DNA of 64,000 nt, taken from Ophelia neglecta. Lineage: Eukaryota. The DNA is taken from positions 78,740,001-78,804,000 of the forward strand of contig OZ260664.1 of the NCBI GenBank assembly GCA_965285935.1, in the 5' to 3' direction. The position numbers and the translations under genes were made by a program. The notes under the pieces were generated by a model, which was not told the origin of the DNA, made no database searches, and saw only the letters and a list, made by a program, of their open reading frames with translations. Below are positions 19,701-61,051 of this stretch, one piece after another (within the stretch, counting starts at the first letter, position 1; every line of letters begins with the position of its first letter).

Positions 19701-21339
19701 AAATAAGGGAATCTACTAACAGGCTAGATGATATCTGGAGGTCAGTTGGAGGGGAAAGGGATCATCCAATGTTTATCTTCCAATTTTTATCATACTACTG
19801 ATTCTGCATACTATAAATTAATTAACAGTTAATACTTACTTCTGTACAACATGCAACTAAGTTCTGATTGTTACCTGATGAGGGGTGTAACCATGCACTT
19901 TAAATATGTAGAAACTTGTAAATTACTTCTTCTAGTACTCATCAATCAACATGGATTACCTTGAAAGTTTCTCTCTAATTTATGGTAATTCCGGAGTTAA
20001 AAAATCTATATTCCTGCTAAGAGCCAAAGCAGACAAATCATTTGACACATCTCTTGACAAATTAGCTGTCAGTAAGAATGTCACATTTTGATTTCTATAC
20101 AAAAATTGTTAACTTTAAGAAATAGCATTATCATGCTTGGAGAATCATTGCAATTATTTTCAATCAGCATTTTCAAGATTTGTTATGACTTGTTATGCCA
20201 TCAAAGCAGTTCTGGCATTATCCTACAGCCTAGGGCCCTAGTTTCTGTTATATTAATTCAATTGATGGATGTTCCAGCACTTCATAATTGAGTACTTTTA
20301 TTAAAGGAAACCCATCATAATTGGGGGGGGGGGATTAGGAAGCTATTGAGTAGAGTCAGAAATATGGGCCTCTTTGTAAATGGTTGATTGATTACTTTTA
20401 TCAGGTGAATTTGAGCATCTATGGGAAAATGAAACACTTTGTTTGCTGATTTGGACAGAAAAACTGTGAAGCTTTTGAAATGTTCCTATGCAGGTTTTTG
20501 ATTGGCTTCTTAACAGATGGCTGTAACATATAGCTGCAACACATCTATTATAGTGGCAACCACTCATAGTGGTAGGTTTTGTCCATGAAGTCCTATTTCT
20601 CTAGGAGAGAATGTACCTGTGTACATGATAGATCAAGGTAGTATTATAAACAAAGGGAGCCTGCTCATGTACATGTACTTGACTGCCTTGGAGGCTAGTG
20701 ATCTGGACAAGTAAACCACCAGCTGAAAGCCTGAACTTAATACAGATAAATTACCCCAGCATTAGACCACACCTGCTCAGGATTGACCCCCGAGGTTCTG
20801 AAAGGCTACAACTTTGTTAGTTTCTTTCAAATCAACCAAAAATGTCAATAATTAAGTCAGCCTAGAAATGCCCTTTTATTACCTAACTACCTGTTGTCCA
20901 TATATAGTGGCCACTTGTCCGGTAAAACACCTCTTTTGTAAGAATTCAGCAGACATCTCTCTTGGCTTTGATAATTGACCTTTTCTTTAGGGAAATTTTT
21001 GAATGTTCATCTTTGGTCCTGTAGTCTAGTTGGGCTTGACTTTTGTACTAATGGGTTCTTTAATTGTCGTCTGCTCCCATTGATTACTCAGCAGCCATCA
21101 TTCTAATTAATTTAAGAATGTGTGCAAAGCCTTGAGTGTTTGCCGTGTAGTCTAGACTGAGGTGGGATAAGGCATGCAAGCAAAGTTCAATGACTGCAGC
21201 TCTTGCATTGGAAATCAAATTTGTTAAGGCCCCTCAAACTTTTTGTTGTTTTTTCCTAAATTAAATAACATGTGCTGACCTCTGCATACATAAAAAGTAC
21301 TTCACATGTAATCAAATTGTTTCTTTTGTACAATTTCAG

Positions 21340-21515
21340 GAAGAGGAAATAGAAAAGAGAAAAAGTGAAATGATGAACTCGTCGCGGATGGAAGCGGAAG
21401 TGAAGGAGTTAAGGAAAGAGAATCATGAGCTCAAACAGTACATCCTGGCTCTTCAGGGGGAGGTCTACGGGGCACGGCTGGCAGCAAAATACCTGGACAA
21501 GGAACTCGCCGGAAG
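21340..21515 (+). CDS. GOPC: GOPC coding exon (second coiled-coil region)
   Basis: Acceptor tttcag at 21334-21339 and donor GTAGGT at 21516. Translation [58 protein letters not shown](R) matches the GOPC motif EAEVKxLRKEN...[22 protein letters not shown]. Confidence 0.95.
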
Positions 21516-21949
21516 GTAGGTCAATCATGAGTTCAAACAGTACATTCCGGCTCTTCAGGGGGAGGTCTACGGGGCAGGACTGGCAGCAAAATACCTGGAC
21601 AAGGAACTCGCTGGAAGGTAGGTCAATCATGAGTTCAAACAGTACATCCTGGCTCTTCAGGGGGAGGTCTACGGGGCAGGACTGGCAGCAAAATACCTGG
21701 ACAAGGAACTCGCCGGAAGGTAGGTCAATCATGAGTTCAAACAGTACATCCTGGCTCTTCAGGGGGAGGTCTACGGGGCAGGACTGGCAGCAAAATACCT
21801 GGACAAGGAACTGGTCGGAAGGTAGGTCAATCATGAGCCCAAACAGTACATCCTGGCTCTTCAGGGGGAGGTCTACGGGGCAGGACTGGCAGCAAAATAC
21901 CTGGACAAGGAACTGGTCGGAAGGTAGGTCAAACATGAGTTCAAACAGT
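21421..21949 (+). repeat. 102-bp tandem repeat (5 copies + partial) made of the last 95 nt of the GOPC exon plus 7 nt of the donor site
   Basis: Units start at 21421, 21523, 21625, 21727 and 21829, with a partial at 21931. Each full unit ends ggaag|gtaggtc. Confidence 0.97.
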
Positions 21950-24900
21950 TCAAACCCTTCCTGACAGACACTAACACTACGGTAATATATAGCCCCATCC
22001 TGACCCTTATTCTATTTGTAATCAGTGGATTGAGCTTATTGTGTCCAGAATTTACTGTATACAAATTAACCAAAGCTATTAAACCTCCTTTGTACACAGA
22101 TCATGCAAATTTTACAAACGTAAATAAAGTCTAATCAAAACATATATTGCTTCCAGCCATCTATATATAGAAGGTATAACAAGCTCTCTCGTGTTCAAGG
22201 ACAACTTAGAGGCTTTGGCAGCAGTAGAATTTCATTGCTGGATAAGCTCGCAGAAATCGCATAGACCTGGTAAAGAATAAGTTGATAACTAGGTTAGCCT
22301 CTTGTATTAAAGGACCCCCAATTGTGGACCCGTACAGTTTTAACTATTGTCTGAATATTAGCCAACTTTTGCACTTCCGGATGTGGAGTGGTTTCTTCAC
22401 AAGTTTCGTGATTGCCAAACAGGGAGCAATATGTCAACCGGGGGAATGAGGTCATTACCACTGCTCACTACCATGACTACTCTGGCTTCCTGTGATAACA
22501 CAATGCTTTGGATATGCAGCCCGTTTCTATAAATTAAAGTACTTTGGTTATAGTGCAGGCTGAATGGCAAAACTAACAGATCCCCTGGAGAGTGTTTAAG
22601 AATAGATGGGTCTATAGTTTTCCTGCTGAATTTACAGTTGAAAATGTAATCAGTGGTGCTGTAAAAATGACCACATTGAGACTTGTAAATCTTCTATTTT
22701 TTTTGGAAAAAAAAACGAAATTACTTTCCTATTTTCTTTCCAAATAATTCACTTTTCTCCCAGCTGATTCAGTTTTACATGGACATGGGGCATAATCATC
22801 ACTCAATGGTTGGGTAATACGCTGTGAAGAAGAACAAGAGTGCTCTTGACGGTGAAGCTTGTCCTATTAGCAGAGCTGATGGAAAAAAAGGCAGCCCTAA
22901 TAAGAATATGAATCATAGAGTCTTTATCCTGCCCACCATGGCCTTGGAATAATACCAACTCTCCAGGATATCCAAAATGCTATTTTTTCTGCTCTCCACA
23001 ATTAAGATAACCCAAGCCATCATGGCTATAATCCTTGCTATGCCATTCCTTAAAGGGGTAATTTGCTTCAAAGCAGACAGGCTGAAATCTGATCACTTCC
23101 TACCATACAGGGAACCATTATCGATGCTCTGCTGGGTCAGATCCTTTCTTTAATATATTAAAATGGATGAGGGTAAACAGTCTTATCTTGCCCGAAAAAA
23201 AAGAACAGTGATTTTTGAAGCCTCACTAACGGTGTTAATATTTTCAACAGGGAATTCCAGCTTTATCGGTCAGTGGAACACTTCCAGTTCCTTCCAGTTT
23301 CCAAACTCCTTGTTGTGTCCATCATGGATTGCCGACCCGTCTAAGAACTGTTGCCTGAACCATCTCTAGTTGACTAGAAAACACACATTTCCTTCAAATA
23401 TTTGTGGAATACTGGTGTCCCCTAAGGAGGTTAATAAGACAGCCAGCTAGACTGTGATTGAAGACCTTGAGTTAGATGTCCTTGTGTTTGACAGCCTTTG
23501 CCTGGCTTTCTGGGTTCACTGCACACAGCTTTGGGCATTGGATTTACACCGCTTTTTATTCAGCAAATTCAGGATTTATTGAACAGGGTGCTAATTTCAA
23601 TCGCATTAATTCTACATCCTCAATTAATTCCTAATTTGAAGGCAGGGAGGTGGATGACGATTTGTTTCATTTCATGCCAGAATGGAATAATTGTATTTTT
23701 GTCTTATTTCAAAGTAGACTCTTGACATTCCAGTTGTCTTATTCAAACCTGGCAAGAATAAGAATTCAATTTATAAGATACTTGTGCATACATTACCCAA
23801 GTTAAGGGATAACTCTGGATCAAAGTTTTACAAATCTGACTGGCCAAAAGACCATGAGATATGTCTAGTAGTCCCCACCTGATAGCCTAGGTCTAAGGTC
23901 TCTGTGAGATATATCAGACTTCAGTTACTGAGAGTATAGACTAGCTTATACATCTGAATGACCACAAACACCAATAGGTTCTGTCTTATCTAAATAAAAG
24001 GAACTGATACACAGAAAATAATAAGGGACTCTGCATGGAATTAGTTAAATCATTAAAAAAAAAGTACAATAATATTACTTTGTGTATCAAACTAATCCTT
24101 TATTTATATTTTGACATTAAGGAAGACCACTGACCAAAGTTAGTACATTAGATTAATTATTATTATGATTTCTATGAACTTTAAGGCAGCCCATACTGTG
24201 TGTTTTGAACATTGAATTAGTTACTCCTGTTTATCTGGAAATATTTGTATTTTAATCAATGGATTGTCCCATCAAACTACATGTGTAGGTACTCCATCCC
24301 AAAGCTTAATTCTTCCACTCTCATTCACTAGAGCATTTCTCTCTCCCCATGTCCCCATGGAGACCTGTATCTCCCAAACACTGACTTTACAAGGCAGAAC
24401 ATAGTGTATGACAACGCTGGTTTGACAGTACATGTACTACTATGTATATATATAAATATAACTATGTCCTGTACTCTGTGTAAAATGACATACACATCCT
24501 TCCGCCACTAAAGTGCAGATTCCCCAAGCAGTGAATGGAGAAGTAGTGGAGTGTAGTGACAGGTGATAGGAGAATCTTTCTGTAAAGAAAGGCCCGTGTG
24601 TTATTGATGGTGTGTTTACTACCTCCTCACAATGGTAGAACCCTGGATATAGATATGGTTGACAGAACACACATACTTCTTCACTTGTCCCCAGATATGG
24701 GTTGGTAAATGAGGTTAATGACTCTGAGTCACATGGTCTCTATCACAGTAAATATTTAGGCCTACATTCTTAACTGGGCAAGTAGTATGTCGGTTTGAAT
24801 TCTTGCCACTAACATATGATTAAACAGGTATTTGGTAAATTATGCAGGATTGGCTGGCAGGGCAGGTGGTGGTCTCTGAAGGGTGACTGCCTAGACAGCT

Positions 24901-25723: not shown

Positions 25724-25889
25724 GATTCAGCAGATCCAATTGTTGGGTCGGGACATGAAGGGTGCTGAACATGATAAGCTGTGGAACCAACTGGAGGCTG
25801 AGATACACCTCCATCGCCACAAGACTGTGATACGGGCCTGTAGAGGGCGCACCTCGCGCAGAAAGAAACAGGCCATCCCGCCTGGACAC
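25724..25889 (+). CDS. GOPC: GOPC coding exon
   Basis: Acceptor ttttccag and donor GTATGT. (R)[55 protein letters not shown]; the phase joins the previous exon (AG+G = Arg). Confidence 0.96.
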
Positions 25890-26188: not shown

Positions 26189-26284
26189 GATTTTAATTCA
26201 TTAAAAAGAAGGCAGGGGGTCGGAGACATCAGAAAAGTACAGTTACATAAAGGTCCGGAGGAAGGGTTAGGAATGTCTATAACC
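26189..26284 (+). CDS. GOPC: GOPC coding exon (PDZ N-terminal part)
   Basis: Acceptor ttttacag and donor GTGAGT. DFNSLKRRQGVGDIRKVQLHKGPEEGLGMSIT contains the PDZ carboxylate-binding loop (GLGMSI). Confidence 0.95.
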
Positions 26285-26689: not shown

Positions 26690-26854
26690 GGTGGTAAAGA
26701 ACATGGAGTTCCGATACTGATATCTGAGATACACGAGGGTCAGCCGGCAGACCGGTGTCGAGGTCTCTACATAGGGGACGCCATTCTGTCTGTCAATGGA
26801 ACAGATCTGCGCAACGCCAAACATGCTGAGGCTGTACAAATACTCTCCCAACAG
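26690..26854 (+). CDS. GOPC: GOPC coding exon (PDZ core)
   Basis: Acceptor ttgcag and donor [61 protein letters not shown]. Confidence 0.97.
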
Positions 26855-26929
26855 GTAGGAAAAGACTGGTTTAAGTAATGTACATCTACATACTTGTCCC
26901 TCAAACAGATAAAATCATTAAAAAAAAAA

Positions 26930-27920
26930 GCAGGTAAGGAGACACTTCCAAAGATAAACTACTACCCACAGGTAGGGAAATGTCCTAAACTAACATACTC
27001 TTCTATGCACTTCTTACATGTAGGGAGGAATAAAAATAATACATATATACAGGTATGGAAGAATAGAAATAATACACTCCACTATCAGGTAGGGAAGAAC
27101 AAAAAATAATACACTCTACTAACTGGGAGGGAAGAATGAAAATAATACACTCCACTCCCTGTAATAATACACTCCACTAACAGGTAGGGAAGAGTAAAAA
27201 TAATACACTCCACTAACAGGTAGGGAGGAATAAAATAATACACTCCACTAACAGGAAGAAAAAACTAAAAATAATACACTCCACTCCCTGTAATAATACA
27301 CTCCACTAACAGGTAGGGAAGAATAAAAATAATACGTCCCACTAACAGGTAGGGAAGAATCAGATAATACACTCCACTAACAGGTAGGGAAGAATGAAAA
27401 TAATACACTCCACTCCCTGTAATAATACACTCCACTAACAGGTAGGGAAGAATAAGAATAATACACTCCACTCACAGGTAGAGAAGAATCAGATAATTTG
27501 TCCCACTAACAGGTAGGGAAAAATAAAAAAAACTCTACTAATAGGTAGGGAAGAATAAGATAATACACCCCACTAACAGGTAGGGAAGAATATAAATAAT
27601 ACACTCCACTCCCTGTAATAATACACTCCACTAACAGGTAGGGAGGGATGAAAATAATACACTCCACTAAAAGGTAGGGAAGAGTTAAAACAATACACTC
27701 CACTAACAGGGAAGAATAAGATGATTCACTCCCCTAACAGGTAGGGAAGAATAAAATGATACACTCCACTAACAGGTAGGGAAGAATAAAAATAATACAC
27801 TCCACTAACAGGAAGGGAAGAATAAAAATAGTACAATCCAATAGCAGGAAGGGAAAAATCATACTCAACTTACAAGTAGGGAATAATAAAAATCATAACT
27901 CCATTTATTTGTAGGAAAAA
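26930..27920 (+). repeat. ~36-bp minisatellite (aataatacactccactaacaggtagggaagaataaa) with an interspersed 22-bp variant (aataatacactccactccctgt)
   Basis: Directly visible array. The core is homogeneous at about 27060-27830 and both edges are degenerate. Confidence 0.93.
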
Positions 27921-28640: not shown

Positions 28641-28732
28641 CAAGGCGACATTCAATTAGAAGTGGTGTTTGTAGCCCCCGACGAAGACAGCGATGATGAA
28701 AATCACGAGTATGAAGACGAAAATGGTTTTAG
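28641..28732 (+). CDS. GOPC: GOPC coding exon (PDZ end + acidic segment)
   Basis: Long polypyrimidine tract + tacag acceptor; donor [36 protein letters not shown](R) resembles vertebrate [30 protein letters not shown]. Confidence 0.93.
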
Positions 28733-28958: not shown

Positions 28959-29153
28959 ATATAAGATTTACGACGAGGATGTGGTGAGTGACACCAGTGG
29001 CAGCAGTCACATGAGCACGTCACAGCAGAATGGCAGTGCAGAAACCCAGGCACTACTACCCAACGGACCAAACTCTGTGGCCCCACACGCTGCTGAACAT
29101 TCCCTCGATCAAAAAATGCTTGGTCACCTTCTTGAAACAGTGTCTCCCTCTAG
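28959..29153 (+). CDS. GOPC: GOPC coding exon (C-terminal tail)
   Basis: Acceptor tctctctgtgtag and donor GTGAGG. Open frame (R)YKIYDEDVVSDTSGSSHMSTSQQNGSAETQALLPNGPNSVAPHAAEHSLDQKMLGHLLETVSPS, phase 2 at both ends. RYKIY resembles vertebrate RYRLY. Confidence 0.8.
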
Positions 29154-31240
29154 GTGAGGTTATCTTCAGCATTAGTGCTTTTGAATTGTATTGAGATATG
29201 TTTGACCAGCTGTATCGTGTGCATTCTGAGTTATATCATGTCAGATAAGAATGGTTCAAAATTTTGCACTATTTGATTTTTTCAATGTGTGTTTTTGTGG
29301 CACTTTTGGTGTAAACTAATTGACTTTATTTTTCATGAAATTGATCAGGAAACCAGTATTGAATTAGTATTGAGAAGCTGCATTCCTTTACTGTGACCGT
29401 TTATTAGTGGTATATAGATTTTGTGATGAAAATGATAGTTACAAGTTTAGAGAGCAGACACTTTTTTTTTGATATATGAAAATGGAATGAATTCTTTTGA
29501 TGATACATTTAATAGAAAATGATTTTTTGTGGGTCAAGTTTTATCGCTCATAAATTGAAATATCATGCTGGAGAATATTAAAACGAATTCATAGAAAAAC
29601 CCAACAGTGGTAGCTCATTTATCCTGATGATTTAAGGGTTTTATCACAATGGGCCAACCACTTCATTGCCCATATTCACCATGTTTGGCCAAGCTATAGT
29701 CAAATTTATTTTTGAATTCAAAATAGAGCCTTGTAGTCTATATTTGAGAACATTTGTGCAGATGTATTCATAGTAAAAACAAATTAGTTTCCCCCGTTTA
29801 GCAAAAAAATGTGAATATCACTTTTGTTGCCATAGCTCCAGATAGCCTTACAGGCTATAGCCTAAATTGTTTACTGCAAAGCCTATCTAAATAAGGTAGT
29901 GAAAATAGCTGAGATGGTATAATAATGTTAACATGGATGTTACTTGTCTATGTAAATGCAAATTGATGGCTAAAAGTAGATTATGAATTGATTCCATGAT
30001 CCCTCCAATATGTTGTGTCACATTATCTGAAAGCTAGGAATTGGAAAACAAAAAAAAAGGAGGGTGATTAACTCCATCATTGAATTGGCTTCAAAAAAGA
30101 CTATTATCTTGAATGGCGAAATCATAGATGCTTTTGAGTTGAGTGTCAGGGAAATATCTGCTATTGTTAGATGCCCAGTTTTAAAGCCAAAGCGAGTGGG
30201 TGATGGTTTGAGGTCATTTTTTATATTATCAAGTCAGCTGATAGAAATAATTACTAATATTTTATAAAACATTTTATGTATACATTGTAACAAACTGAAT
30301 TGGGGAAAGTAGTGAGGATGTTTGCCCATTAAACATGTACAGTATGTGCATGCATGCTTATTGTATAATCTGATGATAGATGAGTTTTAAAATCAAAAGA
30401 TAAGTCATACCCCCACTTAAAGACTTCCTTCCCGCCCCAAGATTATCATTTGGGATGAAATTTAGTCAGTAGGTCTTTTCACATGACAAACATTAACATG
30501 GCCTTCATGAGGAGCATATGTATAGCAGCTTTGGGGGCAGGCCTCGTTTAGAACTAAATTATGTTCAATCTTATCAATTTATCCCATTTTTCGTAAAAAG
30601 TCAAGAGAAAGTGCCTGCAAAAGGACATTAAAAAGGCTTCAATGGGTGTGCCAAGTGTGATATGCCCTTAGGGGTTCCCTGAGGTGATAACACTGAAAAT
30701 TTAAATAAATTAAAAATAAAACTGTTGCTCTTAATTTAATTTAAAACATATATGTTGGTTTCACCTAACACCGACTAAAATCACAAAGTAGTCGATTGCA
30801 CCTGTCATATTCTGTCAAATAGGTCTCTTAAATGCACCTTTAATATCTACAGATTGTACATTTCCCTACTCACAAAGATATATAGATTAATTTGAAAGTT
30901 CTCATCCCATTCCACCAATTATTTTTTAAATTGAGCTATAAAATTTGCTCACCAAGTCTGTGTCTTTTTAATATATTTTCTGATATATAGGGGCAGACCC
31001 ATTTGGGATCTTAGCCCTACACCACCAGGGGGTCCTACTCTACCCCCCTTTAAAGAGGTCCTTGCACCCCTTAGTTTATAAAAGGGGTCATCTCACAAGT
31101 AGGGTGTGGGAGGACACATTAAATTCCCCTCCCATGTCCTCTGAGCTGGCCCCTTTTTCCTCACTTTCTCATTCAATCCTGATATGAATTATTTGTGTGT
31201 CGTTCTAACATTAATCTGTTGATGCCTTACCTTTTTCTAG

Positions 31241-60799: not shown

Positions 60800-61051
60800 A
60801 TGCATCCTAGAGAGCGAGTTATTAGGATGAAGCTGGACAATTCCTTGCGTGGTAGTTTGGCAATGGGCTCCGGGGTGCCAATGCCGGGTATGGTTCAGTA
60901 TATTCCCCCAAAGGTAGCAGAAGTTCATCGTGATGTGCTCAGAAACTTTCCCCATTCAAAGAGGGTCGGAAACTACCTATTGGGAAGGACTCTGGGTGAA
61001 GGATCATTCGCTAAGGTCAAGGAGGCCCTTCACATTCTTTCAGGCGAAAAG
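60800..61051 (+). CDS. HUNK: HUNK-like (hormonally up-regulated Neu-associated, AMPK/SNF1-related) Ser/Thr kinase, first coding exon; gene continues beyond the window
   Basis: ...VHRDVLRNFPHSKRVGNYLLGRTLGEGSFAKVKEALHILSGEK|gtacgt contains the Gly-rich loop and resembles HUNK (LRDFQHHKRVGNYLIG..LGEGSFAKVREGLHVLTGEK). Phase-0 donor at 61052. The start ATG is uncertain (60800 or a downstream Met). Confidence 0.85.

Follow-up and report, generated by a model that had tools for sequence, protein, structure and literature searches.

A five-copy exon-boundary minisatellite repeats the exon-3 splice donor of GOPC in Ophelia neglecta

Minisatellites that lie across an exon-intron boundary have been described in several human genes. 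The 37-bp VNTR in IVS7 of F7, the 100-bp array of LMNB2, the 81-bp array of PDGF, and the arrays of CBS IVS13 and 6-16 share a single layout, in which the first unit straddles the boundary and the donor is carried unchanged down the intron (PMC1557585, available sections). In F7, LMNB2 and PDGF splicing is confined to the first donor, whereas CBS and 6-16 also make use of one or two of the pseudo-donors further downstream (PMC1557585). The F7 pseudo-donors are reported to stay silent even where their use would add no stop (PMC1557585).

Related repeats, called 'mirages', are known from lancelet genes: Adh3, the globins BflGb6 and BflGb9, troponin C and PGBD5. Their units measure 10–160 bp, with 81–100% identity and allelic differences in copy number, and in the portions of the two reports at hand splicing is said to be undisturbed (PMC3087553, PMC3902484).

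The GOPC gene of Ophelia neglecta has the same layout. In a stretch of 64,000 nucleotides (the window), TRF finds a tandem array at 21421–21949 (5.2 copies of period 102, score 967, with 96% matches and without indels). The unit holds the end of GOPC exon 3 together with its donor: 95 of the 102 bases are the last 95 of the exon, and the first unit, 21421–21522, spans the exon end at 21515. The signal AAG/GTAGGT of the authentic donor at 21516 recurs identically four further times in the intron, at 21618, 21720, 21822 and 21924. From −3 to +9 the five donors agree at every base; no pseudo-donor has decayed. Five full copies differ from each other at 2–7 of 102 bases, with nine variable columns in all, and a search of the 762-Mb genome returned four matches to the array DNA, all inside its own locus. 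A preliminary description, made from the letters of the window, had recognized the 102-bp exon-end duplication with its five tandem donors and the common acceptor at 25724; TRF and alignment of the copies confirm it, and its coordinates are right. A second GT lies 4 bases past each donor (21520 and equivalents), and its use would include the stop discussed below too.

The array is a further example of the exon-boundary minisatellite class. Its unit size is near that of LMNB2 and its copy number near that of F7 (5–9), whereas the GOPC unit is mostly exon and the F7 unit includes 4 exon bases (PMC1557585, in part). It also differs from the human arrays in belonging to an invertebrate. Like the mirages, it consists of tandem exon-boundary copies in a gene of a marine invertebrate, and BflGb9 too repeats the 3′ boundary of an exon; unlike them, going by what is available of those reports, it affects another gene in what is apparently another lineage, and GOPC has two arrays (PMC3087553, PMC3902484). 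The GOPC pseudo-donors also resemble latent 5′ splice sites, which lie beyond the real donor and behind a stop so that their use creates a target for NMD. As described in part of PMC3510495, however, latent sites are chance matches, whereas the GOPC pseudo-donors are exact donor copies with exonic context.

The repeated exon clearly belongs to GOPC. It has 573 homologues at E ≤0.001, and among the best 120 of these the best named are mostly nemertean, annelid and mollusc proteins. It is the third of eight coding exons, which together give an open frame of 426 aa, and it is followed by a phase-2 intron of 4.2 kb. With exons 1 and 2 upstream of the window and the frame open throughout, we rejected the idea of a pseudogene or partial duplicate. 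Scoring of 30 candidates turned up a single full set of GOPC exons; elsewhere the matches were confined to the PDZ region. The first two introns are long, intron 1 about 12 kb and intron 2 about 27 kb (78722520–78761340 of the contig), and intron 2 fills the first 21 kb of the window. The GOPC models of Lingula anatina (P0001) and Rhopilema esculentum (P0002) repeat the part that exons 2–3 encode here and have a doubled coiled coil, which could be a true exon duplication or an assembly error.

Table 1. Features of GOPC and its two donor arrays (positions in the window)
Feature	Position	Strand	Remarks
GOPC coding exon 3	21340..21515	+	176 nt; second coiled-coil region
Repeat copy 1	21421..21522	+	Exon end and authentic donor (intron starts 21516, phase 2); TAG 21517–21519
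Repeat copy 2	21523..21624	+	Pseudo-donor 21618; L-to-F, L-to-P and R-to-G relative to copy 1
Repeat copy 3	21625..21726	+	Pseudo-donor 21720; L-to-F and R-to-G; nearest the array consensus
Repeat copy 4	21727..21828	+	Pseudo-donor 21822; L-to-F, R-to-G and A-to-V
Repeat copy 5	21829..21930	+	Pseudo-donor 21924; L-to-P, R-to-G and A-to-V
Partial sixth copy	21931..21949	+	19 bases, without donor; runs into 9-base direct repeat
GOPC exon 4	25724..25889	+	Common acceptor exon
GOPC exon 5	26189..26284	+	Start of PDZ region
GOPC exon 6	26690..26854	+	PDZ domain core (PF00595, E 6.2e-12); donor at 26855
Intron-6 minisatellite	26960..27900	+	Older; 35–36-bp units; 13 CAG/GTAGG pseudo-donors like exon-6 end and donor
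GOPC exon 7	28641..28732	+	
GOPC exon 8	28959..29157	+	Coding part to stop codon

The differences between copies record how the array grew. Unit positions 55 and 57 are changed in copies 2–5 (R to G) and positions 87 and 89 in copies 4–5 (A to V, giving the ctggtcgga of these two copies), both as stated in the preliminary description. It had missed several other features: the change at position 10 (L to F) in copies 2–4, which the partial sixth copy shares; the changes private to copy 2, at positions 24, 26 and 90; the one private to copy 5, at position 11 (its position 10 has the same base as copy 1); and the partial sixth copy itself, whose 19 bases end in a direct repeat of 9 bases. There are prolines, too, in copies 2 and 5. 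The shared derived changes support its proposal of one seed duplication and later expansion. Copy 3 is nearest the consensus, and copy 2 and copies 4–5 would each derive from the copy-3 state. The partial copy is probably what an 81-base deletion left of a sixth copy, given the direct repeat at its end and the derived base that it has at position 10. At the end of the array, 21931–21957, three short identical motifs stand in a row and suggest slippage or deletion.

Many of these differences lie close together in pairs, at unit positions 10/11, 24/26, 55/57 and 87/89. Each of the four branches of the copy tree bears two changes no more than 2 bases from each other, which 5 of 200,000 random placements matched; the tree was drawn after inspection of the data and the run contigs do not confirm two of the pairs, so that the pairing is a lead towards error-prone synthesis rather than a result. 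The 55/57 change also creates a G-rich motif (21571–21580 and equivalents in copies 3–5). The motif resembles the vertebrate minisatellite core, presumably by chance.

Does selection act on the protein sequence of the extra copies? The R replaced by G in copies 2–5 and the A replaced by V in copies 4–5 are invariant in 120 of 120 homologues (the best 120 of 573, from cnidarians to mammals), a figure biased upward because these were ranked by likeness to copy 1. Five of the nine substitutions among the copies change a residue against 76% expected under neutrality (P=0.15), and this comparison of low power gives no clear sign of coding constraint on copies 2–5. These copies have decayed, and nothing in the sequences points to their coding for protein, in agreement with the earlier view that copy 1 alone is constrained.

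A search for sequencing runs that contain the stretch listed three (X1, X2 and X3), none of them from RNA. They come from one sample and one study, are available as contigs, and may be the assembly's own source. This last point leaves some room for an array made by the assembler from one real copy, as do a contig of X3 (3,495 bases, depth 12.8) that skips 408 bases, exactly four units, and the absence of the private variants of copies 2 and 5 from the examined contigs of the three runs. The other contigs of the same sample speak differently. In X1 the R type and two G types form exact-match pieces of their own (depths 55–66 for R, 45 and 120 for G, and 229 for the shared body), and the unit-to-unit junction of this run has a depth of 87 against flanks of about 33. 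In X2 the body stands at 122 and the junction at 59 against flanks of 27–29; across both runs the flanks range over 27–41. These unit-to-unit junctions make an artefact unlikely. The body is four to seven times deeper than the flanks (6.8–7.0 in X1, 4.3–4.6 in X2), ratios of contig depth within one sample that are no copy number; we rejected them as such, since the estimates run from about 4 to 7 and the GC content of the unit is 54% against 38–39% in the flanks. The single unit of the X3 contig bears G and V at the invariant positions and follows the same path as the X2 body contig, as expected if X3 collapsed the assembly graph. We did not accept the 408-base skip as a true single-copy allele, given this decayed G/V unit and the tandem junctions in X1 and X2. 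All told, we regard an assembler-made array as most improbable.

The array may also differ between alleles. The junction contig of X2 differs from the window at 2 letters, which were inferred, and fits a copy-4-type end joined to a copy-4-type start. Such a join is absent from the window and hints at a second allele of different make-up; we think the array is probably length-variable between alleles. Across 21204–22319 the three runs show eleven single-base differences and a 7-base deletion, each in two states, consistent with one heterozygous animal.

What would follow from use of the downstream donors? Reading past the donor gives GGA AGG TAG, as had been described for the first donor, and it does so in all five copies. 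The TAG at 21517–21519 lies between the authentic and the downstream donors, as the stop does at latent 5′ splice sites. Splicing from donors 2–5 would yield a nonsense-bearing mRNA for 188 of the 426 aa, with the stop 98–404 nt upstream of the exon junction, where AS-NMD would place it. This supports the earlier reading that such use stops translation before the PDZ domain.

The same description held that the TAG guards the donors. We found no support for this: the TAG is simply intron positions +2 to +4 of a phase-2 donor and was copied along with it, and therefore needs no special explanation. In phase 2 the T of GT starts the next codon, so that GTAA, GTAG and GTGA donors all give an immediate stop. 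A stop triplet occupies +2 to +4 in four of the seven GOPC introns whatever their phase, and in one of the two phase-2 introns. Stops before latent donors are likewise commonplace: in human coding-region introns an in-frame stop precedes more than 98% of latent donors, and for latent donors within 1 kb the share is 91% (PMC3510495, as available in part). We consequently rejected a selected guard. Of the 120 homologue records, 88 run into exon 4, 4 end exactly at the arginine and 28 continue in another way or are cut short; this pattern is in keeping with an intron whose position is conserved and which now and then opens with a stop, though the four could also be truncated models. Our literature search found no statistic on stops at phase-2 donors. 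The unit length is indeed a multiple of 3, but that has 1-in-3 odds and is moot because the copies sit behind a stop. Extension of the coiled coil in 34-aa steps would need the stop to be lost in each copy, and the units so added would be decayed ones, with R-to-G and L-to-P or L-to-F changes.

In intron 6, 13 CAG/GTAGG motifs fall within 1 kb of the real exon-6 donor at 26855. In the one unit tested, the 20 bases that precede the donor resemble the real exon end to a degree bettered or equalled by only 7 of 1,010 control 20-mers ending in CAG. The minisatellite is likely to be an older exon-end duplication. Intron 6 is in phase 0 and its first stop is at +22, showing that such donor arrays arise without an immediate one. 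To judge from these sequences, donor arrays have arisen twice in GOPC, once lacking an immediate stop. The genome search found no dispersed family for the exon-3 or the intron-6 array; each matches its own locus only.

We consider it quite probable, from the sequence and from the precedents, that the exon-3 array is a neutral exon-boundary minisatellite in which the first donor carries splicing and the other copies are silent. A 102-bp piece across the exon-3/intron-3 boundary would have been seeded at short microhomology (AA is common to unit positions 1–2 and intron +8/+9), then expanded by slippage or unequal exchange until it was tandemly repeated five times. Donor 1 would win through 5′-to-3′ donor choice and exon definition: it gives an exon of 176 nt, donors 2–5 exons of 278–584 nt, between introns of about 27 kb and 4.2 kb. 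If the first donor is used, as is likely, the other four copies would be spliced out as part of the intron and would decay neutrally. Any leak to donor 2 or later would place the stop 98–404 nt before the junction, and NMD would presumably remove the product. Evidence for such first-donor scanning comes from mammalian cells, not from this animal. Two further points count against this explanation, namely the identical, undecayed pseudo-donors and the use of downstream donors in CBS and 6-16. On the first point, our arithmetic indicates that nine substitutions in 102 bases would by chance spare a 9-base motif in about 4 cases out of 10.

The same two points bring in the main rival, an unlikely one, that donor 2 and perhaps donor 3 are used at a level of a few to tens of percent. 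The longer the allele, the more GOPC mRNA would then go to NMD and the lower the mRNA level would be, an unselected effect of dose with no regulatory purpose. The five identical donors would permit this, the 278-nt exon made by donor 2 is still plausible, the X2 junction hints at an allele of different make-up, and heat shock activates latent donors in human cells (PMC3510495, in part); the CBS and 6-16 precedents also favour it (PMC1557585, in part). Against it, F7, LMNB2, PDGF and the lancelet mirages are described without such use in the available parts of their reports (PMC1557585, PMC3087553, PMC3902484).

A stronger version of downstream use, a regulated switch between donors, would yield either an NMD target or a stable, coiled-coil-only GOPC of 188 aa acting on the full-length protein. 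The short protein would end where exon 3 does. In the FIG-ROS(S) fusion the N-terminal 209 aa of the human protein are expressed, although the fusion is cytoplasmic and not Golgi-bound (PMC3017127, seen in part); judging by positions in vertebrate homologues, this human fragment probably ends at the same junction. The case for regulation weakens on inspection. The stop is an automatic result of donor sequence and phase. The 50-nt rule is the usual guide to NMD, and with the stop 98–404 nt upstream and four more introns downstream, decay is favoured over a stable protein. Regulated AS-NMD is expected to use an alternative site conserved across species, and to do so according to condition. This array is young, with no sign of selection, and the precedents point to use of the first donor. 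Our literature search found no truncated or NMD isoform of GOPC. We judge a regulated switch very unlikely.

The repeats could also be nascent introns or exons of the kind proposed by Rogers. Each unit contains AG/GT, and a model of this type has been put forward for the mirages (PMC3087553, PMC3902484, in part). The copies would be removed stepwise, with AG/GT as acceptor, or one copy would become a small exon, with the AG at unit position 38 as acceptor. That AG has 60% upstream pyrimidines, within the 55–100% of six roughly placed GOPC acceptors; the AG/GT acceptor has 40%, below the real ones by this crude measure. Stepwise removal would yield normal mRNA anyway, and the 59-base pseudo-exon would shift the frame and stop inside exon 4. 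Among the AGs in the unit none gives an in-frame internal exon except a zero-length one at AG/GT, the best cryptic exon being frame-shifting. Such gain is extremely unlikely here.

A more consequential possibility is that the array is a length-variable rheostat and a mutation reservoir for GOPC, each added unit diverting mRNA to NMD. We regard this as decidedly unlikely, going by what the letters show. The 68-bp insertion of CBS duplicates a splice boundary. The common allele that carries it, c.[833C;844ins68], has been proposed as a gene-conversion template for a harmful coding change, though it is a single insertion and not a five-copy donor array like that of GOPC (PMC2630376, in part). If GOPC worked likewise, exchange of the decayed copies with copy 1 could carry the R-to-G and A-to-V changes over into a coiled-coil motif that is otherwise invariant, and the single-unit X3 contig, were it a real allele, would be a product of such exchange. 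The two independent donor arrays and the paired substitutions of all four branches would then point to recurrent error-prone repair at these donors.

The most likely status of the neutral minisatellite that we favour is one of little consequence, one more member of its class. Its five identical donors, told apart by copy-diagnostic bases, are nevertheless a clean natural substrate for a test of splicing. They could show whether an invertebrate, too, scans for the first donor as mammalian cells do, and whether downstream sites are silenced by a stop at the donor. The array is also a caution for gene annotators and short-read assemblers, because here a collapsed contig yields a false missense allele of GOPC.

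We surveyed 464 kb around GOPC for arrays with a period of at least 20 and at least 2.5 copies. The donor motif occurs in 5 of 42 such arrays, two of them the GOPC arrays, against 2.83 expected from shuffles, so that a local enrichment of donor-bearing arrays is not shown. Short arrays whose consensus holds a donor-like motif lie at L014:2434-2495, L032:3795-3916 and L044:3899-3983. An open stretch at 60866–61051 of the window, within a weak tblastn row, reads like what we take to be the start of a protein kinase exon. Upstream of GOPC, from L040:5632 up to L043:3297, there are apparently five copies of a block of some 6.7 kb, each with the same array of 191–193 bp.
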